Source: Candidatus Magasanikiibacteriota bacterium
Lineage (GTDB): Bacteria; Patescibacteriota; Patescibacteriia; Magasanikbacterales; 2-02-FULL-50-9b
NCBI GenBank assembly: GCA_903893485.1
Contig: CAITMK010000008.1
Location: 10,612 to 74,611 of the forward strand
Reading direction: 5' to 3'
DNA length: 64,000 bases
How positions within the stretch are numbered: the first letter of the stretch is position 1; each line of letters opens with the position of its first letter. The position numbers and the translations under genes are program-made. Below are positions 2,909 to 50,868 of this stretch, piece after piece. A model generated the notes under the pieces. It had not been told where the DNA came from, ran no database searches, and was given only the letters and a program-made list of their open reading frames with translations.

Positions 2909-2972
2909 TTCAAGTCCATCATGCCAGCGCACATAGGGTGCAAAGGCAGTCCCGATGGACCGGAGGAACCCA

Positions 2973-4429
2973 TGAATGTCACTATTCAGTATTCAGGCGA
3001 TCGCGCCAAAACACGGGGAGTCCATGCGCTCTTTGTGGAACTTTTGAAAAAAGCGGGGCTGCAATCGGCCGACGCAAAATTGACGGTCACCGCAGGTGCC
3101 AAAGGTAGCTCTGAAAAACACGGTATCGCAGGCATCAGCATCGTTTCGCACGAAATCAAGACAACGCTCAAGCTCTGCTTCCAGCCGGAAGGACCCAGTA
3201 GCGCCCGCTACGGCTTTCTGAGCGTGAAAGGCGTCACGAAAAACGACCTGCAAGCGAAGCTTGAAGCGGCCATTGCGTTGGCCGGCGAAGGCACGCCACA
3301 CAAAGCGCGCAAGCGGAAAACACCGGAAGCGGTGGTTGCCATCTTGATCGCTGAGTTCAACAAATCCGGTCGTGAGCATTGGGAAGCGGCGTTCGATCTG
3401 ATCGAAGCGGCTGCCCAAGTCATGACGATCGTTGTCGGGCTGGGGCAATACCGCCACGAAGTTCGGCACGGCGATTTTCACGACTTGCTGGATGACGCGA
3501 CGGAAGTGTGTAGCTTCTTTCAAGTGCTGCACAGCGTCGGGCTCGCCGACAACGTGGATTGCGGCGAGGGCGTGAACGGCGAAAAGCCCATGCGCATCGA
3601 TCTCGACTTCTACCATGAGGTGGCGGCCGAGTTTGCAAAGCGCAAGGCCGCCGATCAGCCGAAGCCCGATGACAATCCGGCACCGACTAACACTGCACCG
3701 CCCGAGGAACCTACGCCTACGATCAGCTACGTTGCGTTCTTGTACAGGCTTTTCCAGGTTGAGCGGTTCCAGGACATGACCACTGCAGAAGTTTGGCGCG
3801 ATCACGGCACGCAACTCGGCGCCGTAAACGGCACAAACGTCCGCAATCACTTCAAAAGTGGCGTCCAAAACGGCTTGTTGATACCGACCGGCGAAGAAAG
3901 GCAGATTCCTCCACAAAACAAGAACTGCACGGTTCGCAAGTTCAATCCGGCATCCGAAATGGTGCAAGGCTGGGCGCGCGAACTGGGCGTGGAGATTCCG
4001 AAGGTGGCTGTGTTGCCGCCCAAGGAAGAACTGCCGGCGCAGGACAAGCCCATCCGCGAGCGAATTGTTGTGCTGGAACTGAGAAAGGAACGGCACTTGG
4101 CCGATGTCCATAACCTCGATGCCGAAGTGCAGAGCCTGACTCAGGCAATCCAGAACATCGAAGCCGCCAAGCAGGAGGCGCTGGCGGAATTCGCACGGCA
4201 AACGACAGAGCGCGAAGAGATGATCCGCCTTCGCATGAGTTTGCGCGCGCCGCTGCTGGAAGAGATTCCGAAGCTGCAAACGCAGATCAGTGCGTTGCAA
4301 GCGCAGGACGAGTCGGCTATCTTCGCCGCCTTGGAGGAAACCGCTCGCCGCCTCGGCATCCCGGTTGACCAGCTTCTCGCCGCCGGCATGAAACGCGTCG
4401 CCCCCGCCGCCCAAGTCCCCGCTGGCTAG
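2973..4429 (+). CDS. hypothetical protein, 485 aa, C-terminal coiled coil; GC-rich foreign-type cassette gene
   Basis: long ORF (track 2921..4429); GGAGG 5 nt before ATG 2973 supports internal start MNVTIQYSGD; C-terminal heptad-like Q/E/L/A-rich segment; no recognisable catalytic motif; both strands open (GC-rich). Confidence 0.6.
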
Positions 4430-4446
4430 CAACCGCCACCAGCAAA

Positions 4447-4506
4447 CGCACCGGAATTCAGAGACCGTACTTCATCTCTGGGTTCCGCGTGCGGTTTTTA
4501 TTTTTG
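4447..4506 (+). terminator. intrinsic terminator (GC hairpin + TTTTTATTTTT)
   Basis: GCACCGGAAT...CCGCGTGCGGTTTTTATTTTT; paralogous to the terminator after purA. Confidence 0.6.
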
Positions 4507-4529
4507 CCAGACGATCGCCCTTCGCCATC

Positions 4530-4558
4530 TTGACATGAATGCTTGTCAGGCTTAAGCT
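4530..4558 (+). promoter_or_regulatory. sigma70-like promoter TTGACA-N17-TAAGCT for purA
   Basis: TTGACA 4530..4535, 17-nt spacer, TAAGCT 4553..4558; GGAGGT 6 nt before ATG 4603. Confidence 0.5.
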
Positions 4559-4602
4559 TATACGCGGCAACACGACTTATTTTGAGTCACGGAGGTGAAG
4601 CC

Positions 4603-5928
4603 ATGCAACTTTCAAAACCAACAACATCTTTGCTCCCCCGCATCGAAAAAATGCTTACAGGCGACCGCACCATTGCAGTCGTTGGCGCGCAGTTTGGCGA
4701 TGAGGGCAAGGGCAAAATCGTCGAATTGCTTGCGCTCTGGGCAGACATCATCGTTCGTTTCAACGGCGGCAACAACGCGGGCCACACCATTTACGTGGAC
4801 AACAAGCCCGAAGTTTTGCACCTACTGCCATGCGCCATCTTCCAACGTGGCAAAATCTGCGTCGTTGGACAAGGCGTGGTCGTTGATCTGGAAGTCCTGA
4901 AAAAGGAACTCGGCCTAGCAAAAGGCCGTGGATCGATCATCCGCATTGATCGGCGAGCACCGGTGATTCTCCCCATCTACAAGCAAATTGATGGTTTGCG
5001 TGAAGCGGCCAATTCGAAAAAGCTGGGAACAACCGGGCGCGGCATCGGGCCGGCCTATGAAGCGCACGCCAGTCGGTATGCGCTGCGCATGGGTGATCTC
5101 ACGAGCGCCTCCCGCATTCGCGAGGCGCTAAATCGTGGCGGCAACTATTATGCGCAATTGTGCGCGGCTGCCAAAAGTCTCGGTGGCACGCCGCAAACAG
5201 AAGATGACCTGGTCAAAGAGCTTCTCGGTTATTCGCGTATGGTCAAAAATCTACTGTACGACACCGTGGAAATCGTGCGCAAAGCATTGGGTACCAAAAA
5301 AATCATGTTTGAGGGCGCGCAAGCCGCACTCCTAGACGTGAATCAAGGTACCACGCCGTTTGTGACATCCAGCTCATGCACCATCGCCGGTATTTACAGC
5401 ACCTTTGGGCAGCTGCCCATTGATCGGGTGTTCGGCGTGGCCAAGGCTTATGTCACTCGCGTTGGCGAGGGCCCATTCCCCTCAAAAATCGTGGGTGAAA
5501 TGGCCCATGCCCTGCGCGAAGCTGGCAACGAGTACGGCTCCACCACCAAACGTCCGCGCGACGTCGGTTGGATGGACCTGTTTGCACTGCGCTATGCGGT
5601 ACAGATGGGCGGCATCACGGACATCTGCCTCACCAAGGCGGACGTGTTGAATCTGTGGTCTCAGCTGCAAGTGTGCACCAAATACATGCACGGCAAGAAT
5701 GTGGCGAAAGAACATCGCCTCATGACCGCCGAGTATGTGAAAGAATGCACGCCAGTGTTCGAAGAAGTTGAAGGTTGGCACGGTGCAAACCTCACCGGCA
5801 TCAAACTCTTCGGGGATCTGCCGCCCGCGCTGCAACAGTACATCCGCGACATCGCTGCGTTCCTGGGTGTGCCAGTCAGTATGATCGGTATTGGCCCGTG
5901 TCACGACGACATCATCTTCCACGGCTAG
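4603..5928 (+). CDS. purA: adenylosuccinate synthetase, GC-rich
   Basis: QFGDEGKGK P-loop, GGNNAGHT, TTGRGIGP, VTSSS, LTKADVL motifs colinear with E. coli PurA; start chosen at ATG 4603 by GGAGGT RBS (track ORF starts earlier at 4543). Confidence 0.85.
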   Translation: MQLSKPTTSLLPRIEKMLTGDRTIAVVGAQFGDEGKGKIVELLALWADIIVRFNGGNNAGHTIYVDNKPEVLHLLPCAIFQRGKICVVGQGVVVDLEVLKKELGLAKGRGSIIRIDRRAPVILPIYKQIDGLREAANSKKLGTTGRGIGPAYEAHASRYALRMGDLTSASRIREALNRGGNYYAQLCAAAKSLGGTPQTEDDLVKELLGYSRMVKNLLYDTVEIVRKALGTKKIMFEGAQAALLDVNQGTTPFVTSSSCTIAGIYSTFGQLPIDRVFGVAKAYVTRVGEGPFPSKIVGEMAHALREAGNEYGSTTKRPRDVGWMDLFALRYAVQMGGITDICLTKADVLNLWSQLQVCTKYMHGKNVAKEHRLMTAEYVKECTPVFEEVEGWHGANLTGIKLFGDLPPALQQYIRDIAAFLGVPVSMIGIGPCHDDIIFHG

Positions 5929-5949
5929 GCCAACTGCCGCGTCCCAGCA

Positions 5950-6016
5950 ATCGCACCGGAATCCTCCAGACCGAACTCTCGTCTGTTGCAGGAATCCGCG
6001 TGCGATTTTTTATTTA
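5950..6016 (+). terminator. intrinsic terminator, same family as 4447..4506
   Basis: GCACCGGAATCC...GGAATCCGCGTGCGATTTTTTATTT. Confidence 0.6.
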
Positions 6017-16166: not shown

Positions 16167-16895
16167 TTACCTCCGATATTGTTGCTCCAAAAACGCCGCA
16201 AGATCCGCCGACAAGCGCGTACCAATCACCGCTGCATCACGCACCCGAAACCGCCGTGCGATTTCAACTTGAATCGCGTTCACGCCAAGTTCACGCGCCA
16301 CGGTGCGCACCGTAAAATTCCCATTCAACCAATCATCTTGTGCTGTTTGCGCCTGTGTTTTGGGCAAAAACACAGAGTAGCCACGCTGCCGAAAAAATTC
16401 TGCAAACGCTTCATCCGGCGCGCCGTGCAAAATCGTTTCACGATTCCCCGTGCCCAGAATCAAATCATATCCATCCCGCGGCGCATACGGCGGCTGATTC
16501 GAAAACCCGTGCACATCAAGCAAAAGCAGTTCCTCCTGCGCCGAGTGACGGAGCATTTGCTGCAAATGCACATAGATTGCACCATGATATTTTTGATACA
16601 ACGCCTCAAACTGGGGCAGCTCAAACGCATCTTCCGGCGCGCGATTGTAATCCAGAAACCTGCGCGACATGAGCCCACGCACCACATTCACCGGATACGT
16701 ACCAATCGCATCGCGCACAATCGGCCACACCGCTCTATCGTGCAAAACAGTTCCGTTAATGCGACGCGGCACAAACGGCTCAAGCTCCAAACCGTGCACA
16801 CCATCGTGCGGCACCGTGATGAGCACCCGCGACGGCGACCGCGCCGCCAGCGTTTGCACATAATTATCAACGCCCACTGCAAAATCCTTACACAT
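16167..16895 (-). CDS. N-formylglutamate amidohydrolase-family (FGase-like) zinc hydrolase, GC-rich
   Basis: VPHDGVHG and LDVHGFS metal-ligand-like motifs; GGAGGT 4 nt before ATG at 16895 (track ORF extends to 16997); antisense ORF 16179..17084 open because of GC. Confidence 0.55.
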   Translation of the reverse strand: MCKDFAVGVDNYVQTLAARSPSRVLITVPHDGVHGLELEPFVPRRINGTVLHDRAVWPIVRDAIGTYPVNVVRGLMSRRFLDYNRAPEDAFELPQFEALYQKYHGAIYVHLQQMLRHSAQEELLLLDVHGFSNQPPYAPRDGYDLILGTGNRETILHGAPDEAFAEFFRQRGYSVFLPKTQAQTAQDDWLNGNFTVRTVARELGVNAIQVEIARRFRVRDAAVIGTRLSADLAAFLEQQYRR

Positions 16896-16934
16896 GCTAA
16901 CCTCCGAAAAGTTGAGAAACAAAAAACGCCCCGC

Positions 16935-16985
16935 AGGGCGCTGAATATCAAAAGCCCTGCGCGTTATTTCGCGCCGGCGTGTGCA
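16935..16985 (-). terminator. terminator-like hairpin in 5' leader of FGase-like gene (possible attenuator)
   Basis: minus: GCGCAGGGCttttgatattcaGCGCCCTGCGGGGCGTTTTTTG located between candidate promoter (17034..17062) and RBS. Confidence 0.4.
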
Positions 16986-17033
16986 AATCCTGACCAAGTT
17001 TTAAAAGTTGCGGTCATTAACATAATTAATGAC

Positions 17034-17062
17034 AGAATAATCTTAAATTGTTCAGCTGTCAA
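17034..17062 (-). promoter_or_regulatory. candidate promoter TTGACA-N17-TATTCT
   Basis: revcomp TGTCAA 17057..17062 and AGAATA 17034..17039 with 17-nt spacer. Confidence 0.35.
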
Positions 17063-17155
17063 ATCATGTTCTATTTGGATATAAATTTAATGCTAAATTA
17101 AATTTTAATTAATTAAATAAAAACGCGCCCCCGACCGTTACAATCGAGGACGACT

Positions 17156-17686
17156 TTACACTGCGCGCGGCCACTCGCCAAATTGCACCCACACCTTTTC
17201 GGCATCCAGCGGTGGTGGGTAATAAAAGCGGCTGCTCAAAGAAATTGTACGCGCAAAACCTTCGTTCACCAGAACCGGCAGCGTGATGTCATCACCAAAC
17301 CGCGGCTCTCGGCTGATGTGACCGATAAGTCGCACGCCGCGCATGGTCTGCACCACAGACTCCAGAAGTGCGGCTTGGATCCCACGACCTGCATACCCAG
17401 ACGCGATCGGCGACCAAACGAGGTGATGTATCGCGGATTGATCTTCGATACGAAAGTACCCGCGCACTATGCCAAATTCAAAAGCATCCATGTTGCGCTC
17501 AAGCAGCGAAAACTTCAAAACAGCGCAGGCTGCGACAAGCACACCGCCCGCATCATGGACCGCATACACTTGCGCATGCGAATTCTGAAAATCGTTGTGA
17601 GGAAAGCCGATGCACAGCTCCGCACACGCATTCCTACCAGCCCACGCACCAACGCGTGAAATCGTAAAACCTTGTGGCATCGCCAT
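17156..17686 (-). CDS. GNAT-family N-acetyltransferase, GC-rich
   Basis: acetyl-CoA binding-type motif VWSPIASGYAGRGIQAALLESVV; GGAGG 5 nt before ATG. Confidence 0.7.
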   Translation of the reverse strand: MAMPQGFTISRVGAWAGRNACAELCIGFPHNDFQNSHAQVYAVHDAGGVLVAACAVLKFSLLERNMDAFEFGIVRGYFRIEDQSAIHHLVWSPIASGYAGRGIQAALLESVVQTMRGVRLIGHISREPRFGDDITLPVLVNEGFARTISLSSRFYYPPPLDAEKVWVQFGEWPRAV

Positions 17687-28893: not shown

Positions 28894-30303
28894 TTAGCCT
28901 GCCAAACAAGCAGATTTGGTATACCGCCACGATGTCAGTGGGCAATTTTCTTTCGGAACAGGAATTGTACATGAACCAACGCCATTTGGTGTGGTTATGT
29001 GACAAAATATTTTATCCTGACAAAGCGCCGATGTTAATGCAATTGTGTTTGCACCACAAGACGAAGACGCTGCAGCTTTAGTCATGCTTGCACAATTATC
29101 TCCAGTAGGACTAAAAATAACCTGCGTTGAATCATTACTCATACAGTAATAGCCGGTTCCACTAAACTGACAATCTTGTGGACATGTCGCATTTGATTCA
29201 CTTGCACTACACGTGCCATCGCCACACGTATTCGCTGGAACTTGTATAACACCTCCGGTATCTGCATTACACACACTCTGTATCGAGTGTGGAACACCTC
29301 CAGCGGCTGCACAGGCTGATTTAGATACATACATACTGCATCCAACATAACTGCCAACCTGTTTTGTGCAATAGGTAAGATTCAAACAATCTAGCGTTGG
29401 CATTGTTTTGCCAGCAAGATCAGCCGAAACCTGAGCGTCACATTTTGTCTGCGCATCTGCAACGCTTACCGCATTAACCGGCTGTGTACCATACGCATAA
29501 CATGTCGCGGTAAAATCACCAAAAGTTTTTTCTTTGCAGAAGTATGTTGATGATCCGCCACTCCCTGTACCCGAACAATCGCTTGGGCAGCTAGTTACTG
29601 TTTCCGTAGCATCACACGTACCATTATTATTGCAAGTACCGTTTGCTGGTGGTGGAGTTAATACATTACCAGTGCCGGTGCCGGTTAAATCACACTTGCC
29701 GGCAACACCAGCCGCATCAACACCACAATTTGCATCTACACTACATGATTGTCCAGGTTTTTCCCCACCAATACAAGTTGGAAAAGGATTTGCATTTGTC
29801 TGACAATCAACCGGACAACTATCGACAGTTTCCCCGGTATCGCAAGTACCATTACCACAAACCGCTCCTGCGGCAACCGTTGTGGCGGTAGTATTACTAC
29901 TCGCCGTTCCCGAATTAATCGCTGGCGCGACCGTTGAAAATAAAAAGTTAGTAATAACATATGCCGCCATGACCAAAATAATACCGATTGTTGCGTCGAT
30001 AAGCGTATCACGACCTTCGCTAACCGATTTGGTATCGCCGTGTGCGGTCATCCAACGGAACCCACCATACACTGCAAAACCCAAAAACACCAAGCCGGTT
30101 AAACTAAGCGCGATGCCTAAAATATCACCGACCAAGGTTGGCAATGTTTTTTTGGTTGTAACAGCAGTGCTAAAAACGGTCGTGCTCTTAGCGGTTTCAT
30201 CGAGACCAAATGCATCTGCATGTGCCACAATCGGCATTGCGAAAGAAAACATGGTTAATGAAATTGCCAAGGGCGCCAAAATTTTTGCAAATAAACGTTT
30301 CAT
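28894..30303 (-). CDS. pilin-like N-domain fused to a large Cys-rich extracellular repeat region (469 aa)
   Basis: N-terminal 135 aa paralogous to 30383..30817; three copies of C-G-[ND]-G-T-C-[DS]-x2-E-[ST]-x2-[ST]-C-P-x-D-C; many additional Cys. Confidence 0.65.
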   Translation of the reverse strand: MKRLFAKILAPLAISLTMFSFAMPIVAHADAFGLDETAKSTTVFSTAVTTKKTLPTLVGDILGIALSLTGLVFLGFAVYGGFRWMTAHGDTKSVSEGRDTLIDATIGIILVMAAYVITNFLFSTVAPAINSGTASSNTTATTVAAGAVCGNGTCDTGETVDSCPVDCQTNANPFPTCIGGEKPGQSCSVDANCGVDAAGVAGKCDLTGTGTGNVLTPPPANGTCNNNGTCDATETVTSCPSDCSGTGSGGSSTYFCKEKTFGDFTATCYAYGTQPVNAVSVADAQTKCDAQVSADLAGKTMPTLDCLNLTYCTKQVGSYVGCSMYVSKSACAAAGGVPHSIQSVCNADTGGVIQVPANTCGDGTCSASESNATCPQDCQFSGTGYYCMSNDSTQVIFSPTGDNCASMTKAAASSSCGANTIALTSALCQDKIFCHITTPNGVGSCTIPVPKENCPLTSWRYTKSACLAG

Positions 30304-30382
30304 AGAAAAAAATCATCCGGAAGTTTTGCTTCCGGATGATAGTATATCAAACTTTTTCGCTTTTTGACGAGACTTATACACC

Positions 30383-30817
30383 TTATGGTGTTGATGAGGC
30401 GGCAGCTCCGGGCGCAGCAGTATTAAGCGCGGGTGTGATGGTTGTAAAAAGATAATTCGTAACAATATAGGCGGACAAAACCAAAACGATACCAATCGAC
30501 GCATCGATCAATGTTTCGCGTCCTTCAGTGACTGATTTTGAATCGCCACGTGCAGTCATCCAGCGGAAGCCGCCGTATACCGCATAACCTAAAAATACCA
30601 AACCAACTAAACTTAAGGCAACACCTAAAATATCACCAACCAATGTTGGCAAAGATTTTTTAACCGTAACATCTTGTTTAAAAACACCCGAAGCATTTGC
30701 AGTTTGGTCTAAACCGTACGTATCGGCCTGCGCATGTGCCACCAGTGGTGCTGCCATTGTAAAAAATGTTAATGAAATTGCCAAGGGCGCCAAAATTTTT
30801 GCAGATAAACGTTTCAT
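30383..30817 (-). CDS. T4SS-type pilin-like protein
   Basis: MKRLSAKILAPLAISLT signal; YGGFRWMTARGD core; close paralog of N-domain of 28894..30303. Confidence 0.6.
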   Translation of the reverse strand: MKRLSAKILAPLAISLTFFTMAAPLVAHAQADTYGLDQTANASGVFKQDVTVKKSLPTLVGDILGVALSLVGLVFLGYAVYGGFRWMTARGDSKSVTEGRETLIDASIGIVLVLSAYIVTNYLFTTITPALNTAAPGAAASSTP

Positions 30818-30886
30818 AGAAAAAAATCATCCGGAAGGGATCGCCTTCCGGATGATAGTATAGCAAACTGATTTGCTGTGGGGAAA

Positions 30887-38505: not shown

Positions 38506-38853
38506 ATGGTTTCACGTGAAACATCCCATAACCTATCTGACGATTTTATAGCTGGAATAATTTCGGTTTCAGGTAGTTTTCTTCATACAAAAACTGCACG
38601 CGTAGAACAATTTGGTTTTCAAATAAAAACACCAAAAGAAAACTTTGCGCTTCTTGAAATGATACGACTCAGACTTGGCTTAAAAGGATCCGTAAAAATC
38701 TATTCGGCAGATGGATCAGAATATGCATTACTTATTACAAGATCAAAAAAAGAGCTTTTGAACAAAATAATTCCATTTGTTGAACATAAACTACTTGGAA
38801 TTAAGCTAAATCAATATTTAAATTGGAAAGATAAACTCCAATCTATTTTATAG
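38506..38853 (+). CDS. LAGLIDADG-family homing-endonuclease-like protein, motif acidic residues replaced by Ser (likely degenerate)
   Basis: DDFIAGIISVSGSF aligns to LAGLIDGDGSF motif; downstream FQIKTPKEN...LLITRSKKELLNKIIPF typical of LAGLIDADG fold; sits between two tRNAs. Confidence 0.5.
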   Translation: MVSRETSHNLSDDFIAGIISVSGSFLHTKTARVEQFGFQIKTPKENFALLEMIRLRLGLKGSVKIYSADGSEYALLITRSKKELLNKIIPFVEHKLLGIKLNQYLNWKDKLQSIL

Positions 38854-41707: not shown

Positions 41708-41735
41708 GGTGGCATCTTACAACATGGGGCGGGGA

Positions 41736-41764
41736 TTGACAAAAAGCCGAATTTCTAATAGTCT
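41736..41764 (+). promoter_or_regulatory. promoter TTGACA-N17-TAGTCT
   Basis: TTGACA 41736..41741, TAGTCT 41759..41764; AAGGAG 8 nt before ATG 41797. Confidence 0.5.
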
Positions 41765-41796
41765 TGCCTCCAGGCATCACACAAGGAGATATTGCC

Positions 41797-42378
41797 ATGA
41801 CAGCAGAACACAATTTCGCAGGCGCATCGAGCGCATACTCACTTGTGGGACGTATCGTCGATATGCTTCACACATGCGCGCAAGGTAGAAAGGCTGCCAC
41901 GCTCATCGAGAGAAACCTCGATCTAATCCACCGTCTACTGCGGACAATCCGCGCGGTTGCCGAACTCGAAGCCGTCGGACCGAACTACGGTAACGATCCG
42001 ATGGAGGTATCGTACACGAGCGCCACCGGCGAGTCTGTGAAAGAACGTGTTTGGCTCGGCGCCATCCGGCTCAGTGACGTTTACAGCGATGCTGGGCGTG
42101 GCCGTTCACTCGACGAATTTAATCCAGAACAAACGCGCACGATGCTGCAATTGCTCGATGTCCGATTCGCAAACGAGCACCACTGGAAAGCGCTCGCGAA
42201 CGAAACGAGCGAGCCGTGGCGTTGGCAACAATACCTGATCTTCGACGACGCACGCATCCTCGTGCCGATGAAGCAGGAAGTCCCCGCGCTGCAAGCACAC
42301 CCATGTACCAACAACACCGTGCCGAACATCGACTTTTACCCCTGCATCATCATCGTGCTGAAGTTGGAGCCGATGTAG
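41797..42378 (+). CDS. hypothetical protein (193 aa), GC-rich cassette gene E1
   Basis: ORF with SD-supported start MTAEHNFAG; no recognised domain. Confidence 0.55.
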   Translation: MTAEHNFAGASSAYSLVGRIVDMLHTCAQGRKAATLIERNLDLIHRLLRTIRAVAELEAVGPNYGNDPMEVSYTSATGESVKERVWLGAIRLSDVYSDAGRGRSLDEFNPEQTRTMLQLLDVRFANEHHWKALANETSEPWRWQQYLIFDDARILVPMKQEVPALQAHPCTNNTVPNIDFYPCIIIVLKLEPM

Positions 42379-42395
42379 CTAGCAGCGAAACATGC

Positions 42396-42452
42396 GGTCC
42401 GTCCGGATCTGAGTCCATCACTTGGGGCTCTCCGGACGGCGTTTTTATTTTG
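42396..42452 (+). terminator. intrinsic terminator, family shared with 43202..43256
   Basis: GGTCCGTCCGGATCTGAGTCCATCACTTGGGGCTCTCCGGACGGCGTTTTTATTTTG. Confidence 0.65.
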
Positions 42453-42466
42453 ACAAGCTATGAGGA

Positions 42467-42495
42467 TTGACAGAAACTGTATTTTGCAGTAGTCT
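42467..42495 (+). promoter_or_regulatory. promoter TTGACA-N17-TAGTCT (paralog of 41736..41764)
   Basis: TTGACA 42467..42472, TAGTCT 42490..42495, both preceded by GATTGACA. Confidence 0.5.
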
Positions 42496-42551
42496 TTTCC
42501 CATGCCTGTAGCAAATTGCTGCACACATCCCAACATCGCGTGAGGCTATCA

Positions 42552-43193
42552 ATGAGCAATCCTGTTTGGCTTTTTCTTCACCACATTCGCCCTTATCTGT
42601 TCGAGGTCGAGACGCTTGATCCGAAAAACCTGAAATCAGTCGCGGCGGCGCTGAACCTTGTCGATCGGTTCAATCAGATCAGTGAGCACGCGCTGCACGA
42701 GCATTTCAGCACCGTCGATCCGAGCGCCAACGATTCGCAGGAATTGCGGATGTTCCACAACTTGTTGAAGTCGCTGCTCGAAGTGATGCCGCGGCACCCT
42801 GAACTGACCGCGACCTACAACAAAGTGTTTGGCGTTTACGTGATGCTGTTCGAACACCAGCACGACGAATACGGCAAGCGCGGCGCTGAGCGGATCGTCG
42901 AGATGCTGAAACCTGAGAACTTTCAACACAACATCGAGGCTTGGCCGATTTACCACAAAGCGATCATCCTCGCCGTGTGGGCATTCGTGAGGCGTGCAAA
43001 GACAACCCTGAGTCCGCACAACGATGATACCATTCCGCTGAAAATCACGGCGGTGGAACTTGTGCTGAGAACGATCGATCCCGACATGTCAGCTGCCGCA
43101 AAGATGAGGCGTATGAGCGAATATGGCCTGGATCATACGTACCGGCTCTACCAGTTTCACCACCATGAATCGGCGAGCACGACGCCGCAGTAG
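42552..43193 (+). CDS. hypothetical protein (213 aa), GC-rich cassette gene E2
   Basis: SD-like GAGG 6 nt before ATG (MSNPVWLF); His-rich C-terminus YQFHHHES; no recognised domain. Confidence 0.55.
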   Translation: MSNPVWLFLHHIRPYLFEVETLDPKNLKSVAAALNLVDRFNQISEHALHEHFSTVDPSANDSQELRMFHNLLKSLLEVMPRHPELTATYNKVFGVYVMLFEHQHDEYGKRGAERIVEMLKPENFQHNIEAWPIYHKAIILAVWAFVRRAKTTLSPHNDDTIPLKITAVELVLRTIDPDMSAAAKMRRMSEYGLDHTYRLYQFHHHESASTTPQ

Positions 43194-43201
43194 TCGAACT
43201 A

Positions 43202-43256
43202 GTCCGTCCGGATTTGAGCCCAGCATTTGGGGCTCTCCGGACGGCGTTTTATTTTA
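43202..43256 (+). terminator. intrinsic terminator; U-tract contains polA stop codon on opposite strand
   Basis: GTCCGTCCGGATTTGAGCCCAGCATTTGGGGCTCTCCGGACGGCGTTTTATTTTAATCC. Confidence 0.65.
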
Positions 43257-45965
43257 ATCCAAATCTGCCCAACTGTTTCCAATCGCACTATCAACTTTCA
43301 GTGGCACGCTCAATTTCGCAACGCCATTCATAATTTCAACAATCTTTGGCGCCAAATCTTTAACCAACTTTTCTTCAATCTCAAAAATCAATTCATCATG
43401 TACCTGCAAAATCATGCGAGCAGGGCAGGCGCGTTCCGCAGCGGTTAGGCTAAACCCAAATCCATATTCGCGCACCAAAAATTCATCAACCGCAATCATC
43501 GCTTTTTTCACAATGTCAGCTTGCGTTCCTTGAATTGGCATGTTCACTGCCATGCGATCTGCGGCGGCGCGCACACCAGCCACGCCGGAATGCATTTCTG
43601 GCATATAGCGACGGCGACCAAACATGGTTTCAACGTATCCATTCTCACGCGCAAATTTTTTAATGCCTTCGACGTACGCTGCAACACCAGTAAACGTTGC
43701 AAAATATTTTTCAATAAACGCGCGTGCCTCACTTTGTGAAATACCCGTGCGCTCTGCCAAACCCCACGCACCCATTCCATACAAAACACCAAAGTTAACT
43801 TCCTTTGCGGAAAAACGCATTTCTTTAGTCACCTGATCGAGCGGCACACCATGAATTTCTGCGGCCGTTGCTTTATGAACGTCTTCGCCTTTTTCAAAAA
43901 TTTCAATTAATTTTTTATCCTGTGCTAAGTGTGCAACAATGCGCAATTCAATTTGCGAATAATCGCACGACAACAATTTGTATCCATCGGCTGCAATAAA
44001 CGCACGACGAATATCGCGGCCCAATTCACTACGCACCGGAATGTTTTGCAAATTTGGATTCGATGATGACAAGCGACCAGTTGCAACAACAACTTGATTG
44101 TAACTGGTATGCACACGACCGTCTTGCGCAATTAATTTTGGCAACGCGTCGACATAGGTCGATAATAATTTTGCAACTTCACGATGTTCCAAAATCGCAT
44201 CAATAATTTCGTGCGTGCCTTTTAATTTTTCAAGTTCGCCGGCGGCGGTTGAAATTCCAGTTTTTCCGCGCTTAATTCCAAATGTTGATAATTTTAATTC
44301 TTCAAATAAAACTTCGGAAACTTGTTGTGGCGATGCAATGTTAAATTCATGGCCTGCGAATCCATACACGCGCGCGGTAATTTTTTCTTGGCGCGCGGTT
44401 AAGTCAACATGTAATTTTTCCAAATATTTTGGATCAACTAAAACGCCATAACGTTCCATGCGCGTGAGTGGTGCAACGAGTGGCATTTCAATATCCGTAA
44501 ATAATGCCATCTGATTTTTTTCTTCCATGTCCGCACCTAATTTTTCTGCGATACGTGCAACACGTGCTGCAGCACGCGCAACAGTTGCACCATCCGCAGT
44601 TGTCCATTCAGCCACCGGCACGTCTTCGCCTAAAATTGTAATCACCAAATTTGGTAAATCATGTGCGCGTGTTCCGGCTTGCAATAAATATGCCGCAACC
44701 ATAATGTCAAAAAACTTTCCCGCAACGGTGATGCCATGCATCGCAAGTTCGTGCATTAATTGTTTAACATCGTGGGCCACAACACCAACGCGCTTATCCA
44801 TAAACAATGGACCGAGCGCATCCCACTGCGATTCCTCGCGCACTTCAACTGCAGCCTGATTGTCGCCATACGAAAATCCAAAGAACGCAACTGATCCTGC
44901 AAACAAATCTTGTTGCGCAACGCGCATAAAATGCACTGCAATTTTTGGTTGGTCTTGAAGTTTTGCAACCAACGCATGTGTGCTTGCTGCATCGCGTGCA
45001 ACAACTATTTTTTTTGCGGGTGTAGATTTTTTTGGTGCTTCTGCAGCTGGCGCATCTTTGCTTCCTGGTAATCGATTTAACAAAGATAAAAATTCAAACT
45101 TTTGCAAAACAGGAAAAATTTCATCGCGTGTAATTCCATCGAATGCGCATTCATCAAAATTAAAATCAATTGGCACATTGCGTACAATCGTAACCAACTC
45201 CTTACTAAGGAGTGCATCTGATTTGTGCTCGAGTAAAACTTTTTGCACACGCGCACTCAATCCTTCTGCAACTTTTTCATGTGCAGCAGCCAACTCCAAT
45301 TTCTCGTATAAATTTTCAATGGTCCCAAAATATTTAATAAGTTCCATGCCTGTTTTTTCGCCAATACCTTTTACGCCTTTAATATTATCAGACGTATCAC
45401 CACGAAGTGCTTTGTAATCGATCATCTGAGGTGGTTCAAAACCAAAACGTTCGTGCACCGCTGCCGCGTCGTAAGTTACGGTGTCATTAATACCTTTGCG
45501 CATGGTGTACACCACGGTATTTTTGTCTACCAACTGAAGTGTATCCATATCACCAGTCACAATAACTTTTTTTGCGTGAGGCGCTTCGGTTACAATCGTA
45601 CCGATCACATCATCAGCCTCAAAACCTTTTTTTTCGTACACCGGAATTTTTGCAGCTGCTAAAAATTCTTTGATAAAAGGAATTTGCGCATACAATTCAT
45701 CCGGTGCTTTTGTACGCGTTGCTTTATATTCTGCATACGCTTCATTGCGAAATGTCCCACCAGCCACATCAAAGGTAACTACCACGTGCGTTGGTTTAAC
45801 ATCTTTTATCGCTTTAAAAAGTGTGGTGATAAAGCCGTACACTGCATTTACCAAAACCCCGTCTTTCGTTGCCAAAGGAGGAATTGCATGAAAACATCGA
45901 TGTACCATTGCGTTCCCATCGATAATCATGAGCTTATTTTCTGAGGTTTTTGGAGTTTGAGCCAT
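43254..45965 (-). CDS. polA: DNA polymerase I (5'-3' exonuclease + 3'-5' exo-like + polymerase domains)
   Basis: N-terminal FEN motifs, Klenow motifs DYSQIELR, RRxAKxxNFGxxYG, QVHDELIFE. Confidence 0.95.
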   Translation of the reverse strand: MAQTPKTSENKLMIIDGNAMVHRCFHAIPPLATKDGVLVNAVYGFITTLFKAIKDVKPTHVVVTFDVAGGTFRNEAYAEYKATRTKAPDELYAQIPFIKEFLAAAKIPVYEKKGFEADDVIGTIVTEAPHAKKVIVTGDMDTLQLVDKNTVVYTMRKGINDTVTYDAAAVHERFGFEPPQMIDYKALRGDTSDNIKGVKGIGEKTGMELIKYFGTIENLYEKLELAAAHEKVAEGLSARVQKVLLEHKSDALLSKELVTIVRNVPIDFNFDECAFDGITRDEIFPVLQKFEFLSLLNRLPGSKDAPAAEAPKKSTPAKKIVVARDAASTHALVAKLQDQPKIAVHFMRVAQQDLFAGSVAFFGFSYGDNQAAVEVREESQWDALGPLFMDKRVGVVAHDVKQLMHELAMHGITVAGKFFDIMVAAYLLQAGTRAHDLPNLVITILGEDVPVAEWTTADGATVARAAARVARIAEKLGADMEEKNQMALFTDIEMPLVAPLTRMERYGVLVDPKYLEKLHVDLTARQEKITARVYGFAGHEFNIASPQQVSEVLFEELKLSTFGIKRGKTGISTAAGELEKLKGTHEIIDAILEHREVAKLLSTYVDALPKLIAQDGRVHTSYNQVVVATGRLSSSNPNLQNIPVRSELGRDIRRAFIAADGYKLLSCDYSQIELRIVAHLAQDKKLIEIFEKGEDVHKATAAEIHGVPLDQVTKEMRFSAKEVNFGVLYGMGAWGLAERTGISQSEARAFIEKYFATFTGVAAYVEGIKKFARENGYVETMFGRRRYMPEMHSGVAGVRAAADRMAVNMPIQGTQADIVKKAMIAVDEFLVREYGFGFSLTAAERACPARMILQVHDELIFEIEEKLVKDLAPKIVEIMNGVAKLSVPLKVDSAIGNSWADLD

Positions 45966-46064: not shown

Positions 46065-46859
46065 TCACGAAGCTTCGGGATTCGGCAATTCTTTGTAAAT
46101 CACCCGGACATCATCACGGTCTGCGCCGACAACGTGATATATGGCTTTCAATTGGCCGTCTTTAGCCGAGCAGTACCCACGCAAAATGCCGGTGAGCGTC
46201 TTTGCAGAATCTTCGACTGGCTCAAAAGCAAACTCGGTACCGTATATATTAGACTGCGTAACACGGCCAAAAATGGTTTCACCCTCCGCATTTGAACAAG
46301 CCAAGATTTCGGATCCGTCTTTGCAGGGAACCGTGGCCAAAAATCCGCGCTTAGCGAGCCGCTTGCCCGTTTCTGCCGAATATTTGAGCGCCATCCATGC
46401 GCCTTCAAAACGCCAGAACAGCCGGGTACTCGTTGAACGGATCACCATGCCGTTCACCAGCGTGTAGTCGATCGCCGGCTCATCCCACTTGAGCGGATGA
46501 TGTACGCCCGGTTCGTAACACCGCCTCGCCGACGTATAAGTTCCCAGTCCGGCATACACACGCGGCAAGGCCTGATTACTCAAATCACCAAGAGCGCCAA
46601 CAAGATCGCGCCACACAAGAATGGCTGGCAAGTGATTAGCCTGCACCTTTCCTGAGAGTGTCACGAAAATTTCTGGCGAAAACTCTCCCTTTTGCGGTGA
46701 AATTACAAGCCGAGAAAGTGTCGTACCGGCAAATCCGCGGGGAAGTGCGGTCTCGATAAGCGGCAACAATTGCAACGTCTCCAAACCATCTCCAGGCACA
46801 TTCAAATACAGGCCATGAGCACTCCGCAATAGAGTACCGCCAAATTTTTCCGCTGTCAT
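46065..46859 (-). CDS. hypothetical protein (265 aa), GC-rich cassette gene
   Basis: GGAGG 5 nt before ATG (MTAEKFGG); promoter TTGACG-N17-TATACT at 46901..46929 and 5'-UTR hairpin CCCTACgtgatGTAGGG. Confidence 0.55.
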   Translation of the reverse strand: MTAEKFGGTLLRSAHGLYLNVPGDGLETLQLLPLIETALPRGFAGTTLSRLVISPQKGEFSPEIFVTLSGKVQANHLPAILVWRDLVGALGDLSNQALPRVYAGLGTYTSARRCYEPGVHHPLKWDEPAIDYTLVNGMVIRSTSTRLFWRFEGAWMALKYSAETGKRLAKRGFLATVPCKDGSEILACSNAEGETIFGRVTQSNIYGTEFAFEPVEDSAKTLTGILRGYCSAKDGQLKAIYHVVGADRDDVRVIYKELPNPEAS

Positions 46860-46900
46860 GAATCCTCCAAAAGTGAGCCCTACATCACGTAGGGTCAAAA

Positions 46901-47847: not shown

Positions 47848-48729
47848 ATGTTCTGTACAAATCAAAAAATCTGGATGAAGCTGTGGGGCGTGCGGGGGTC
47901 GCGCGCGACGGATGACCAAGAAGTCGGTGGCGCTACCACGTGCATCGAAATGCGGGCTGGCAGCAGCACGCGGCTGGTGTTCGACGGCGGTACGGGTATC
48001 ATCGCCTTCGGCAATACGCTGTTTGCAGAGCTTGCCAAGGGTCCGGTGACGGTTCACCTGTTCCTGACCCATCTGCACACGGATCACTGGGAAGGCCTGC
48101 GGTTCTTTGATCCGCTGCATCACCCAAACCTGAAGCTGGTCATTTGGGGCCGAAAAGGGTTGGTGCGGATGCTGCGCAAGCAGATGTTCGACGGCAACTC
48201 CTTTCCGGTCACACCGGATATGCTGAAGGCGGACATCACGTGCATGCTTGTGGAAGATGATGGCGTGTATGTGATTCCGACACCTGAAGGCAAAAACGTC
48301 GTGGTTCACGCGCGTAGCCTGAATCATCCGGGTGGATGCTTCGGCTACCGCGTTGAATACGACGGCGCGAGCGCAGCGATCATCCAAGACCACGAGGAGC
48401 AAATCGAGGATACGCCCGAAGCGGCGCAGCTCGAACGCAACCTGGTGGAATTGGTGAGCGGTGTTGATCTGGTGGCCTTCGAGGTTCAGTACTCCGACGA
48501 CATGTACTTTGGTCGTGATGGTCCGAGCCGCAAGGGTTGGGGTCACGATCGCGTGGGACATGCGGCAAAGGTGCTGGAACTCGCAGCGCCCAAAGCGGTG
48601 AAGATCGTCCACGCCGACCCGGACCGCGGCAACCTGGCGTTCGTTACCACGATCGCCAGCGCGGTGCAAAAAGCCACAGGCATTCCAACCACTCCTGGTA
48701 TCCAGGGTGAAGAGGTGACCTGTGGCTAG
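47848..48729 (+). CDS. metallo-beta-lactamase-fold hydrolase, GC-rich cassette gene
   Basis: LTHLHTDHWEGL (HxHxDH) plus downstream His/Asp ligands; antisense ORF 47749..48669 is GC-driven. Confidence 0.75.
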   Translation: MFCTNQKIWMKLWGVRGSRATDDQEVGGATTCIEMRAGSSTRLVFDGGTGIIAFGNTLFAELAKGPVTVHLFLTHLHTDHWEGLRFFDPLHHPNLKLVIWGRKGLVRMLRKQMFDGNSFPVTPDMLKADITCMLVEDDGVYVIPTPEGKNVVVHARSLNHPGGCFGYRVEYDGASAAIIQDHEEQIEDTPEAAQLERNLVELVSGVDLVAFEVQYSDDMYFGRDGPSRKGWGHDRVGHAAKVLELAAPKAVKIVHADPDRGNLAFVTTIASAVQKATGIPTTPGIQGEEVTCG

Positions 48730-48740
48730 ATGCTCCAGCT

Positions 48741-48798
48741 AAAACCCACGATTAACTACGCATGAAGAATGTAAGTTAATCGTGGGTGTTTTTTATTT
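48741..48798 (+). terminator. intrinsic terminator; T-tract abuts stop codon of SPFH gene
   Basis: AAAACCCACGATTAAC...GTTAATCGTGGGTGTTTTTTATTTAC. Confidence 0.65.
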
Positions 48799-49552
48799 AC
48801 GCGTTATGCTCCTGCTGCATGAAAGTTTTAATATCCTGAATTGTTCCCATGAACTGAGATGGGAAAATAATCGTTGAATTTTTTTCAACGGAAATTTCGG
48901 CAAGTGTTTGCAAGTTGCGAAGCTGCAATGCAATTGGATGCGCCATCATGATGTCCGCAGTTTCAGCAAGTTTTTGTGCAGCAAGCGCTTCACCTTCAGC
49001 GGCAATAATTTTTGCACGCTTTTCACGTTCTGCTTCTGCTTGTTTCGCCATGGCGCGCTGCATTGAATCGGGCAACTGAATATCTTTAATTTCAACGGTA
49101 ATAACTTTTACACCCCAAGGAGTTGTGTGGGTATCAATAAGTGTGCGAATTTCTTCGTTGATTTGTTGCATTTCGGAAAGCACTTCGTCGAGTGCAAATT
49201 TACCAACAATGTTACGCACAGTTGTTTGTGCAATTTGATTAATTGCAGAAGAAACATTTTCGATCACGATAATGCTACGTGGTGCATCAACAATTTGATA
49301 ATACGCAACAGCCGAAACATCGATTGAAACATTGTCGCGAGAAATAATTTTTTGTGGCTGGACCGGCATGGTCATGACACGCATATCAACGCGGCGCATT
49401 TGATCGATGAAAGGCCAAACCATGCGAAGACCCGGCTGTTTTTCGTGGCTAAAACGGCCAAGACGAAAAATAACGCCCCGCTCGTACTGCCGAATAACCG
49501 AAAAGGTGCTGACGATGAGTAAAAAAATGATGATGCCAAAAATATAAAACAT
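48797..49552 (-). CDS. SPFH/band-7 (stomatin/prohibitin-like) membrane protein
   Basis: N-terminal TM, YERGVIFRLGRF, coiled-coil AEAEREKRAKIIAAEGE. Confidence 0.9.
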   Translation of the reverse strand: MFYIFGIIIFLLIVSTFSVIRQYERGVIFRLGRFSHEKQPGLRMVWPFIDQMRRVDMRVMTMPVQPQKIISRDNVSIDVSAVAYYQIVDAPRSIIVIENVSSAINQIAQTTVRNIVGKFALDEVLSEMQQINEEIRTLIDTHTTPWGVKVITVEIKDIQLPDSMQRAMAKQAEAEREKRAKIIAAEGEALAAQKLAETADIMMAHPIALQLRNLQTLAEISVEKNSTIIFPSQFMGTIQDIKTFMQQEHNA

Positions 49553-49604
49553 AGTGCGCCGATTATGGCGCAGCTTTAATAAGCTGTCAAACGCTAAAAT
49601 AAAA

Positions 49605-49680
49605 AAGCGGCCGAAGCGACTCGTTGAAGGTGGGCGTGTTTTGCCTCTTCAGTGAATCGCTTCGGCCTTGGCCAGCTTGG
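49605..49680 (-). terminator. intrinsic terminator of GC-rich gene 49683..50600
   Basis: minus: GGCCGAAGCGATTCACTGAAGAGGCAAAACACGCCCACCTTCAACGAGTCGCTTCGGCCGCTTTTTTATTTTAG. Confidence 0.6.
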
Positions 49681-49682
49681 GG

Positions 49683-50600
49683 CTAGGCCGCGGTCGCGTA
49701 CAGCTGGAGCTCGTCGCGCAGCTTGCCCGACTGCTCCACGCTCAGCACTTCAGCCACGTTGTTGCCGTCGCCGTCGTCCAGGAAGCACGCGATGTTGCCT
49801 TCCGGGCCCGTGGCGCCGATGACCGCGCGAACCGTGCGCTGCTTCTGCTGGTTGTCCAGGATCTTCAGCTCGCCGGCGAGGATGGCCTGCGGCATGACGG
49901 AGAACTCGCCGGCGTCGTTGTACTTGACGAGGACAAAATCACCGGTGTCCGAGTTCAAGCACAGCAGCTTGTCGCCGGTATCGCGCGAGATGCTGGAAAG
50001 CTTGAACTGGCTCGCGGGCGACGGGATCGCGCTGCCGACCAGGTCGATCGACATGAGGATGCTCTCGGCGTCCAGCAGGCTGAGCAGCGGCTCGCCCTCT
50101 TTCGGGCTCTTGTGCAGCAGGACCAGGACGTTGGCGTTGCCGATCTTGAAGACGGCCGCGTCGACGAACTTGTTGTTGACCTCGGGCAAGCCCGGGATCC
50201 AGGACACTTCCTGCACGTTGGCGCCGACGAGGTGCTTGCCGGTGAAGCGGTCGCCGTCGACATTCTTCATGATCTGCTCGACCGCCGCCTTGTCGCCTTC
50301 GACGAAGTGGAAGTTCTTGCCCGCCGTCACGACGTACGAGGACTTGGCCTCTTCGCCGTCGGCGCTCGCGATGAACTGCGAGGACATGACGCACGCCTCG
50401 TCGTCGGCCAGCTTGTATTTCTTGGCTTCCGCGGCGTCGATCAGCTTGACTTCAAACTTGCCGATTTCGTCGCCGACCGCGCGCTTCAGCACGACGGCGC
50501 CGGTGTTCTCGGACTTGGCTTTGACGATGCCGTCGCTGCCGATGTAGGCAAGGCCCATCGTGGTGATGAGCTGGATCATAATCGTACGATTGCTGTTCAT
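49683..50600 (-). CDS. hypothetical protein (305 aa), very GC-rich cassette gene
   Basis: protein-like composition on minus strand whereas the 3-4 overlapping ORFs on other frames are Arg/Ala/Gly-rich GC artefacts; GAGG 4 nt before ATG. Confidence 0.55.
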   Translation of the reverse strand: MNSNRTIMIQLITTMGLAYIGSDGIVKAKSENTGAVVLKRAVGDEIGKFEVKLIDAAEAKKYKLADDEACVMSSQFIASADGEEAKSSYVVTAGKNFHFVEGDKAAVEQIMKNVDGDRFTGKHLVGANVQEVSWIPGLPEVNNKFVDAAVFKIGNANVLVLLHKSPKEGEPLLSLLDAESILMSIDLVGSAIPSPASQFKLSSISRDTGDKLLCLNSDTGDFVLVKYNDAGEFSVMPQAILAGELKILDNQQKQRTVRAVIGATGPEGNIACFLDDGDGNNVAEVLSVEQSGKLRDELQLYATAA

Positions 50601-50700
50601 GATGCCTCGTAACCAGTGGATGCGGCCCTTTCTGAGCCAACATCGGTTTCCCTTATTAGCAATGACGGCCTATCCGCCATCGCCAATCTGAGTGAAAGTG

Positions 50701-50729
50701 ATATTAACGGATTTTCAAAAAAATGTCAA
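50701..50729 (-). promoter_or_regulatory. consensus promoter TTGACA-N17-TAATAT
   Basis: revcomp TGTCAA 50724..50729, ATATTA 50701..50706. Confidence 0.55.
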
Positions 50730-50797
50730 GAGGTGACCGACCCCAGACAAAGCAAACAAAAAACCCACCTTTCGGCGGGCTACATTTATTGGCTATA

Positions 50798-50868
50798 AGG
50801 TGCGAGTGAGAATCGAACTCACGATAGGGGTTTTGCAGACCCCGGCCTTACCACTTGGCGATCGCACC
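50798..50868 (-). tRNA. tRNA-Cys (anticodon GCA)
   Basis: GGTGCGATCGCCAAGTGGTAAGGCCGGGGTCTGCAAAACCCCTATCGTGAGTTCGATTCTCACTCGCACCT; U73 discriminator; followed by terminator GCCCGCCgaaaGGTGGGTTTTTTG. Confidence 0.8.

Follow-up and report, generated by a model that had tools for sequence, protein, structure and literature searches.

Within a 64,000-nucleotide (nt) stretch of the genome of a Candidatus Magasanikiibacteriota bacterium (assembly GCA_903893485.1, contig CAITMK010000008.1, positions 10,612 to 74,611; hereafter the window), we describe a short cassette in which one gene very rich in guanine plus cytosine (GC), coding for an orphan protein of 305 amino acids (aa), is framed by a promoter and a terminator of its own. 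Our favoured reading, to which we assign a probability of about one half, is that the cassette is a laterally acquired, independently transcribed 'moron-like' accessory unit, seated in the chromosome outside any prophage, whose product is a fast-diverging, non-enzymatic and probably structural or surface protein. The DNA shows a promoter, a Shine-Dalgarno (SD) site, a real coding frame, a terminator and a distribution like that of an insertion. The host is a Patescibacterium of about 45% GC that is nearest to Magasanikbacteria (window GC, 44.7%).

A GC-rich gene with its own expression signals

The cassette lies on the minus strand. Its parts and both of its boundaries are given below in window coordinates, where UTR is an untranslated region and GC3 the GC content at third codon positions.

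50762-50868 (minus strand): upstream boundary, the tRNA-Cys(GCA) gene (50868-50798) with its own terminator hairpin (50781-50762)
50701-50729 (minus strand): sigma-70-type promoter TTGACA-N17-TAATAT, 10 of 12 in a consensus scan, 21% GC
50601-50694 (minus strand): 5' UTR, about 94 nt from the inferred start, 54% GC, beginning CACTTTCAC
50692-50650 and 50648-50611 (minus strand): leader stem-loop 1, then GAAACC, then leader stem-loop 2, as given by RNA folding
50605-50608 (minus strand): SD site GAGG within ACGAGG, 4 nt ahead of the ATG at 50600
49683-50600 (minus strand): coding sequence of the orphan acidic protein, 305 aa, GC3 0.92
49609-49667 (minus strand): nested terminator hairpin of 59 nt (14 bp, internal loop, 5 bp, bulge, 3 bp, apical loop AAAACAC)
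49596-49606 (minus strand): T6-A-T4 tract, read from the sequence as the end of the intrinsic terminator
49562-49590 (minus strand): downstream boundary, the Band_7/slipin promoter TTGACA-N17-CATAAT, serving a gene of native GC (49552-48797)

The promoter (50729-50701) follows directly on the tRNA-Cys terminator hairpin, as an earlier sequence-only reading of this DNA had proposed. That reading also called it a perfect consensus, which is too generous. The -35 box and the spacer are ideal, the -10 box agrees with TATAAT at four of six positions, and transcription is predicted from this consensus match. The next promoter downstream, that of Band_7, scores higher (11 of 12), so the cassette promoter is a good one, yet ordinary in the host genome. 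The Band_7/slipin unit (48797-49590, minus strand) has its promoter about 9 nt ahead of its ATG, and its mRNA is therefore probably leaderless or nearly so.

The leader, first put at 80 nt, is longer by our count, with 100 nt between the -10 box and the ATG. Its RNA fold has an energy of -42.3 kcal/mol (z -3.6), and neither the leader nor the terminator matches any family in Rfam. The GAGG ribosome-binding site named earlier is in place. The leader also holds a 27-codon upstream open reading frame (ORF; 50598-50677, minus strand), beginning ATGGCGGAT, whose TGA stop overlaps the main ATG (as ATGA); it is without an obvious SD site and is not kept in the sister cassette described below. At the other end, the terminator arms GGCCGAAGCGA...TCGCTTCGGCC are followed by GC-T6-A-T4, and the 96-nt segment containing them (49685-49590) folds with an energy of -40.9 kcal/mol (z = -5.7 against shuffles), which agrees with the earlier description of a strong terminator ending in T6ATTTT. 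A tail of the form T5-6 A/G T3-5 is common to most terminators of the window.

The gene between these signals is as GC-rich as the sequence-only reading had stated. Its overall GC is 0.63, with 0.60, 0.36 and 0.92 at the three codon positions, and the last of these values stands far from the GC3 of the 55 other ORFs of the window (median 0.38, maximum 0.70; z = 4.9), including the neighbouring Band_7 (0.39) and PBP1a (0.28). The pattern GC1>GC2<<GC3 is found in the 305-aa frame only and, together with the SD site and the ATG, identifies it as the real coding frame. Three or four overlapping ORFs had been dismissed as artefacts; we count four, of 314 and 274 aa on the plus strand and of 151 and 102 aa on the minus strand. 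The 314-aa ORF runs antisense in the same codon register as the 305-aa gene, and it is open because the codons TTA, CTA and TCA are absent.

Long accidental ORFs do arise in high-GC DNA, and the antisense 314-aa ORF is annotated in three of the seven gene-called public copies of the locus. It could be argued from this that the cassette is an artefact: a chimera of the assembly, or GC-rich non-coding DNA whose ORF is accidental. We find this scarcely credible. The junctions recur unchanged in six other public contigs taken from ENA and Logan assemblies (L001-L003 and L067-L069), which makes a chimera unlikely; the codon-position pattern is confined to the frame that the SD site, ATG, promoter and terminator all fit; and the sister cassette carries a second intact ORF of the same size. 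The public copies, which were compared for variation in the ratio of non-synonymous to synonymous substitutions, are 99.99-100% identical to each other.

Codon usage speaks for an origin elsewhere. The cassette ORF uses no A-ending codon in any 4-fold box, only CGC and CGT for Arg, GGC for Gly and CTG more than CTC, with GAA at about 40%. Native genes do the opposite, favouring GCA, CCA, ACA, AAA and GAA, and the native, highly expressed S20 and L34 genes have an ordinary GC3 of 0.36-0.50. In codon style the cassette resembles a strongly expressed gene from a proteobacterium of high GC. Usage opposite to that of native genes, combined with the ordinary values of S20 and L34, favours a recent import. 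The Band_7 orthologues of the window and of a metagenome-assembled genome (MAG) from Lake Pavin are 37% identical at 4-fold sites, where saturation would give 25%. With these sites so near saturation, a foreign gene inherited vertically should have ameliorated long since.

The orphan protein and a sister cassette

The 305-aa protein (32.5 kDa, isoelectric point (pI) 4.82, net charge -12) is acidic and contains no strongly hydrophobic segment, in line with the earlier statement that it is acidic and lacks transmembrane helices. Ala, Leu, Val, Gly, Ser, Lys, Asp and Asn are abundant in it, whereas Arg, Cys, His and Trp are scarce. This composition, rich in Ala, Gly, Asp, Asn and Thr and low in Arg, Cys, Trp and His, is typical of extracellular or structural proteins. 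At its N-terminus, as at that of the sister protein, a single Arg precedes 14-16 residues of moderate hydrophobicity (mean Kyte-Doolittle 1.4-1.5); a clear cleavage site, an SLH domain, an LPXTG motif and a lipobox were all absent. Internal repeats and periodicity did not exceed those of shuffled controls, and the low-confidence structure models described below tentatively suggest a mostly beta secondary structure.

Homology to a housekeeping family native to the host lineage, which the sequence-only reading had named as the finding that would speak against it, was looked for and none was found. Sequence searches of Pfam, NCBIfam and PDB gave no match. The protein retrieved only itself from a word-indexed set of 5.8 billion clustered proteins, and again only itself in an exhaustive phmmer scan of 1.84 billion representatives. 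It does not resemble the other Pfam-less GC-rich ORFs of the window. The proposed profile searches against defence and phage families yielded nothing usable: PADLOC-DB 2.0 returned 0 defence families at E <= 10, and the best entry in PHROGs v4 (phrog_14483, E = 0.07 over 27 residues) is not a real match. Structure prediction and Foldseek, also proposed, were carried out and were equally uninformative. AlphaFold2 reached a predicted local distance difference test score (pLDDT) of 34.9 from the single sequence and 38.6 from a two-sequence alignment, and Foldseek with the low-confidence model found no match in PDB at E <= 0.001 (TM <= 0.14). The description of an unknown protein in a foreign-looking, self-contained unit running from promoter to terminator is supported by this lack of homology of any kind.

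Two ideas about what such a protein might be are bounded by these searches. Accessory status, atypical composition, rapid divergence and independent expression signals would all suit a single-gene anti-phage defence or toxin-like module, but PADLOC, Pfam and NCBIfam are silent, no nuclease, NTPase, TIR, Sir2 or transmembrane signature was seen, a partner gene is missing, and the composition does not look like that of an enzyme; we regard such a module as very improbable. The gene could instead come from a phage of a high-GC bacterium, as a capsid, tail or superinfection-exclusion gene left as a solitary remnant or kept as a domesticated moron. The cassette does have the anatomy of a moron and adjoins a tRNA gene, and phage structural genes typically share its orphan status, fast divergence and optimised codons. 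Against this stand the empty searches of PHROGs, of 50,697 phage records (tblastn) and of IMG/VR; only chance matches turned up when phage and plasmid records were queried by tblastn and blastn and when IMG/VR was scanned for peptide patterns. No other phage gene, integrase or att repeat lies within about 10 kb. A phage gene proper is, in our judgement, improbable.

The only relative of the cassette was found in the Candidatus Magasanikiibacteriota MAG from Lake Pavin (L004/L070), as an islet of 65% GC, 3.8 kb from the Band_7 gene. Its parts come in the same order: a TTGACA-N17-TATTAT promoter, a leader of about 92 nt, ACGAGAG, a 306-codon ORF (P0002), a long hairpin and T6AT6. P0002 (306 aa, GC3 0.88, 32.6 kDa, pI 4.6) is an orphan too, with no homologue in family libraries or large protein searches; Pfam, PHROGs, PADLOC, NCBIfam and PDB gave nothing for it or for a profile built from the two sequences.

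The kinship of the two cassettes is seen in their UTRs. The terminators align with a mean column identity of 83% (51 of 77 columns invariant), and both fold as a 14 bp / 5 bp / 3 bp nested hairpin with the apical loop AAAACAC. In this alignment 95.5% of the cells expected to pair do so, and six of the 22 pairs have changed on both sides, that is, in a compensatory manner. By this combination of alignment and fold the terminators are homologous. The leaders are alike as well, in length (about 94 and 92 nt), in having two hairpins, and in sharing the start C-CTTTCAC, the element GAAACC and an ACGAGRG ribosome site. From 204 kb of sequence of the candidate phyla radiation (CPR), a covariance model built on the terminator (R1) recovered the two known copies and generic terminators only. 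Scans for the loop motif in IMG/VR and a metagenome collection returned unrelated sequences only, and the contigs of close Band_7 homologues held no further member. As far as these searches reach, the cassettes would form a family of two, defined by homologous UTRs.

A third contig, L063, which shares a gene backbone with L070, contributes a side observation. Its gyrB terminator (4503-4577, minus strand; AAAACACGCACC...GGTGCGTGTTTT) contains the string AAAACACGC-ACC, which also occurs in the apical part of the cassette terminators (GCAAAACACGCCCACC, GCAAAACACGCTTACC). This sharing may be due to chance.

Whether the two proteins are homologous is a separate matter. BLASTP and unconstrained pairwise alignment detect no significant similarity between them. 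Other comparisons lean weakly towards homology. Of 201 ungapped diagonals the best is diagonal -2. A narrow-band global alignment gives z 2.2-2.8 at about 19-21% identity, a level attained by one of 150 shuffles, and the first ~22 residues are the most similar part. Length, mass and pI agree closely, codon style is shared, and composition is nearly equal (W 1/1, H 3/3, M 7/7, L 29/29). From these comparisons we put very remote homology at roughly two in three; the support for it is marginal. A 305-aa gene lying 3' of gyrB in L063 was considered as a family member and rejected, being an unrelated membrane protein of native GC; its presence makes equal length alone weak evidence of homology.

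The doubt over the proteins gives room to a different model, in which the cassette is a conserved expression slot native to these CPR genomes, unrelated GC-rich ORFs being swapped into it by recombination in the flanks, so that the 305- and 306-aa proteins are not homologous. The window itself offers precedents. Tandem units at 41764-42378 and 42516-43193 have promoters 86% and terminators 87% identical around ORFs without protein or DNA similarity. Likewise, the units at 2921-4429 (Pfam-less, 502 aa, GC3 0.69) and 4543-5928 (PurA, adenylosuccinate synthetase, GC3 0.63), within 2921-6016 on the plus strand, encode unrelated proteins and end in long hairpin terminators (4430-4506 and 5929-6016) that are 85% identical. 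Two adjacent pairs of this kind mean that flank similarity alone is no proof of ORF homology. The slot model also fits the failure of the standard pairwise tests, the restriction of recognisable protein similarity to the stretch of about 22 residues beside the conserved 5' flank, and the coincidence of length with the neighbour of gyrB in L063. On the other side, matching length, mass, pI, composition and codon style, together with a collinear weak alignment, exceed what is expected of unrelated cargo; no recombinase or core-site motif was seen; and the window pairs are adjacent genes, for which local duplication or gene conversion between terminators could account. We consider the slot model unlikely.

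Surroundings, proposed origin and putative role of the cassette

Some 5 kb separate the cassette from dnaN and dnaA, and rpmH and rnpA come immediately beyond dnaA. Its neighbours are dnaA, dnaN, PBP1a, tRNA-Cys, Band_7, a metallo-beta-lactamase (MBL)-fold protein, TrmB and PolA. The Band_7/slipin protein is 87% identical to the Lake Pavin copy and 61-75% identical to those of many other Patescibacteria. Relatives conserve the order SecE-NusG-L11-Band_7-DUF5671-LemA, whereas in the window PBP1a, tRNA-Cys and the cassette come before Band_7 and the GC-rich MBL-fold gene comes after it; this difference indicates that the region has been remodelled. An empty site was not recovered for the window locus, relatives showing only another Band_7 neighbourhood.

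Insertion is clearer at the sister locus. A backbone of gyrB - membrane protein - FtsW - small protein - L25 - PrmC is common to L063 and L070. In L070 the cassette and a second GC-rich ORF stand between gyrB and the membrane-protein gene, whereas in L063 gyrB adjoins that gene in intact form. Alignment of the L070 membrane-protein gene with its L063 counterpart begins only at residue 65 of the latter (60% identity); the first ~64 codons of the L070 gene, including a transmembrane helix, are missing. L063 has an insert elsewhere: small ORFs, rich in GC, that have a TTGACA-N17-TATCCT promoter and a long hairpin as terminator (1447-2480, plus strand), between FtsW and a conserved 123-aa gene, which are absent from the same site in L070. 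With the window cassette at a third kind of locus, the GC-rich units look, from these comparisons of gene order, like lineage-specific additions to a conserved backbone. The second ORF beside the sister cassette (L070 11111-12416, corresponding to the L004 445-1137 region) is itself Pfam-less, with a GC3 of 0.67, and overlaps the start of the membrane-protein gene; it is 197 aa as called in L070 and 230 aa from an earlier TTG start in L004.

On our favoured reading, that of a laterally acquired moron-like unit, the coding part would derive from a bacterium of high GC or from a phage of such a bacterium. A codon style fitting a highly expressed high-GC gene points to a recent arrival from such a source, or to movement among related CPR genomes as a unit. 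The two 5' stem-loops would act as mRNA stabilisers, and the product would be abundant and non-enzymatic, a fast-diversifying protein with a structural, surface or host/phage-interaction role. The composition, the monocistronic design with strong signals, the conserved N-terminus and the lack of enzymatic or defence signatures make such a role the most likely one, ahead of an enzyme or a known defence module.

Several observations weigh against this reading. A GC3 so far from that of the host implies a very recent transfer, in which case a near-identical high-GC copy should exist; none was found among billions of proteins, same-sample assemblies included. The flanks are host-like, with a promoter of 21% GC and a T5-6AT4 tail as in neighbouring genes, and they are conserved between two genomes near saturation at 4-fold sites, a conservation that simple independent imports do not easily explain. 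Similar flanks surround unrelated ORFs elsewhere in the window, and the case for homology of the two proteins is marginal. The precomputed Pfam list shows no integrase, transposase or phage domain within about 10 kb, and no att-like direct repeats flanking the cassette were found. Finally, the surface-protein role is a guess, since the protein shows neither a canonical signal peptide nor an anchor. AlphaFold scores were low and Foldseek came back empty.

Some of these points suggest that the extreme GC3 was not imported but maintained, in a hypervariable gene resident in CPR, through selection on mRNA or codons or through biased recombination or mutation. GC3 values of 0.88-0.92 are found in both of the near-saturated genomes, in units with homologous, selectively conserved UTRs, and the databases hold no high-GC donor. 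Moreover, GC1 (0.60), GC2 (0.36-0.43) and the Lys/Arg ratio of both orphan ORFs are akin to those of native genes, and both avoid CGG, AGR and GGG as native genes do. However, the cassettes stand at different, insertion-like loci, their lack of A-ending 4-fold codons runs counter to the tRNA-driven native preference for GCA, CCA and ACA, and S20 and L34 show no comparable enrichment. We know of no mechanism that keeps a single bacterial gene about 50 points above genomic GC3. Maintenance in place is, on balance, distinctly unlikely. A broader conjecture, that Magasanikbacteria-type CPR carry an undescribed class of cassettes, bounded by promoter and terminator, in which the structured UTRs are conserved, the ORF is swapped or hyper-diversified and an extreme GC3 of about 0.9, foreign to the host, is held, is speculative, and we would wager against it.

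Known systems resemble the cassette in part. The concept of the moron is that of Hendrix and Juhala. Morons carry a promoter and a terminator of their own and a GC content unlike that of their neighbours (PMC3594210). The cassette shares with phage morons its single ORF, its sigma-70 promoter and factor-independent terminator, its sharply deviant GC and, judged by the sister locus, its presence or absence between otherwise syntenic genomes, and morons too often encode orphan proteins. It departs from them in lying outside any phage or prophage, with no phage genes within about 10 kb, in having a CPR host, and in that UTRs are conserved between two members whose proteins are mutually unrecognisable.

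Chromosomal integron cassettes (for example, the Vibrio VCR type) likewise combine an atypical orphan ORF with a long imperfect palindrome, one that is kept between cassettes with unrelated ORFs. Here, in contrast, the hairpin and T-tract act as a terminator, and the ORF has a strong promoter of its own where integron ORFs are promoterless. The units are dispersed rather than arrayed beside intI/attI, with no integrase domain among the annotated neighbours. Inspection by eye found no RYYYAAC/GTTRRRY cores: the base of the hairpin (GGCCGAAG/CTTCGGCC) is followed by the T-tract and holds no AAC/GTT.

Hypervariable surface genes of the S-layer, flagellin and pilin type are also monocistronic, combining a strong promoter and terminator with a long, structured 5' UTR. 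They similarly encode acidic proteins, poor in Cys and Arg and rich in Ala, Gly, Asn, Asp and Thr, and have conserved flanks and a conserved N-terminus, the rest having diverged out of recognition. Unlike them, the cassette protein lacks a canonical signal peptide, an anchoring domain and an assembly motif, and it is small (32 kDa). A literature search on GC3 or S-layers in CPR turned up nothing relevant. Lastly, there are un-ameliorated islets of horizontally transferred orphan genes, as viewed in the amelioration framework of Lawrence and Ochman. The cassette is like these in its large GC3 excess over the host, its position next to a tRNA gene and its patchy distribution, but it has no detectable donor lineage and its host-like flanks are conserved across near-saturated genomes.

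Other GC-rich units and the meaning of the cassette

Several stand-alone, GC-richer units of the window are Pfam-less. In the tandem region at 41734-43258 (plus strand), the Pfam-less ORFs occupy 41798-42378 and 42553-43193, behind TTGACA-N17-TAGTCT promoters. More genes with a GC3 of 0.52-0.70 lie at 47848-48729 (plus strand), 46065-46898 (minus strand) and 16167-17686 (minus strand); they encode MBL-fold (Lactamase_B_2), Pfam-less 277-aa, FGase-like and Pfam-less 176-aa proteins, and of these the 277-aa gene (46065-46898), at the least, comes with a TTGAC-type promoter and a long terminator of its own. Such genes in a 45% GC genome suggest that GC-rich DNA has been imported repeatedly. A similar case comes from a Vogelbacteria MAG (L007, 105-1000, minus strand), where a DUF5701 gene (E = 9e-10; GC3 0.82) has a TTGACA-N17-TACATT promoter and a leader of about 110 nt; by its composition and signals it appears to be another GC-rich import with CPR-style signals.

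Two observations concern the native background. Stems of the CCGGAA type with T5-6 A/G T3-5 tails recur across many terminators of the host genome, and two terminators of native GC, about 500 nt apart (30260-30860, minus strand), have a common stem, TCATCCGGAAG...CTTCCGGATGA. Elsewhere in the window, a free-standing 115-aa ORF (38506-38853, plus strand), LAGLIDADG_1 in public gene calls, lies in a stretch of 32% GC between tRNA-Ala(GGC) and tRNA-Arg(CCT).

CPR bacteria rely on other cells and possess very small genomes, and most of their lineage-specific genes are uncharacterised. Against this background, the cassette is a clean and apparently expression-ready true orphan whose codon composition is opposite to that of its host. 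Its only detectable kin was recognised through UTR RNA structure, not through protein sequence. As a moron-like orphan cassette in a CPR chromosome it is unusual in two respects: its extreme GC3 is without a donor, and its kinship is seen in UTR structure alone. The locus is also an annotation trap, given the antisense 314-aa calls.

If conserved flanks do surround unrelated or hyperdivergent GC-rich ORFs, this would point to an unrecognised route by which CPR acquire or diversify genes. Were the broader cassette class to prove real, it would represent a system of exchange or diversification without a recognisable integrase, possibly tied to the interface between symbiont and host. And if the wider pattern holds, covariance searches on UTRs could link orphan genes that are beyond the reach of protein searches.

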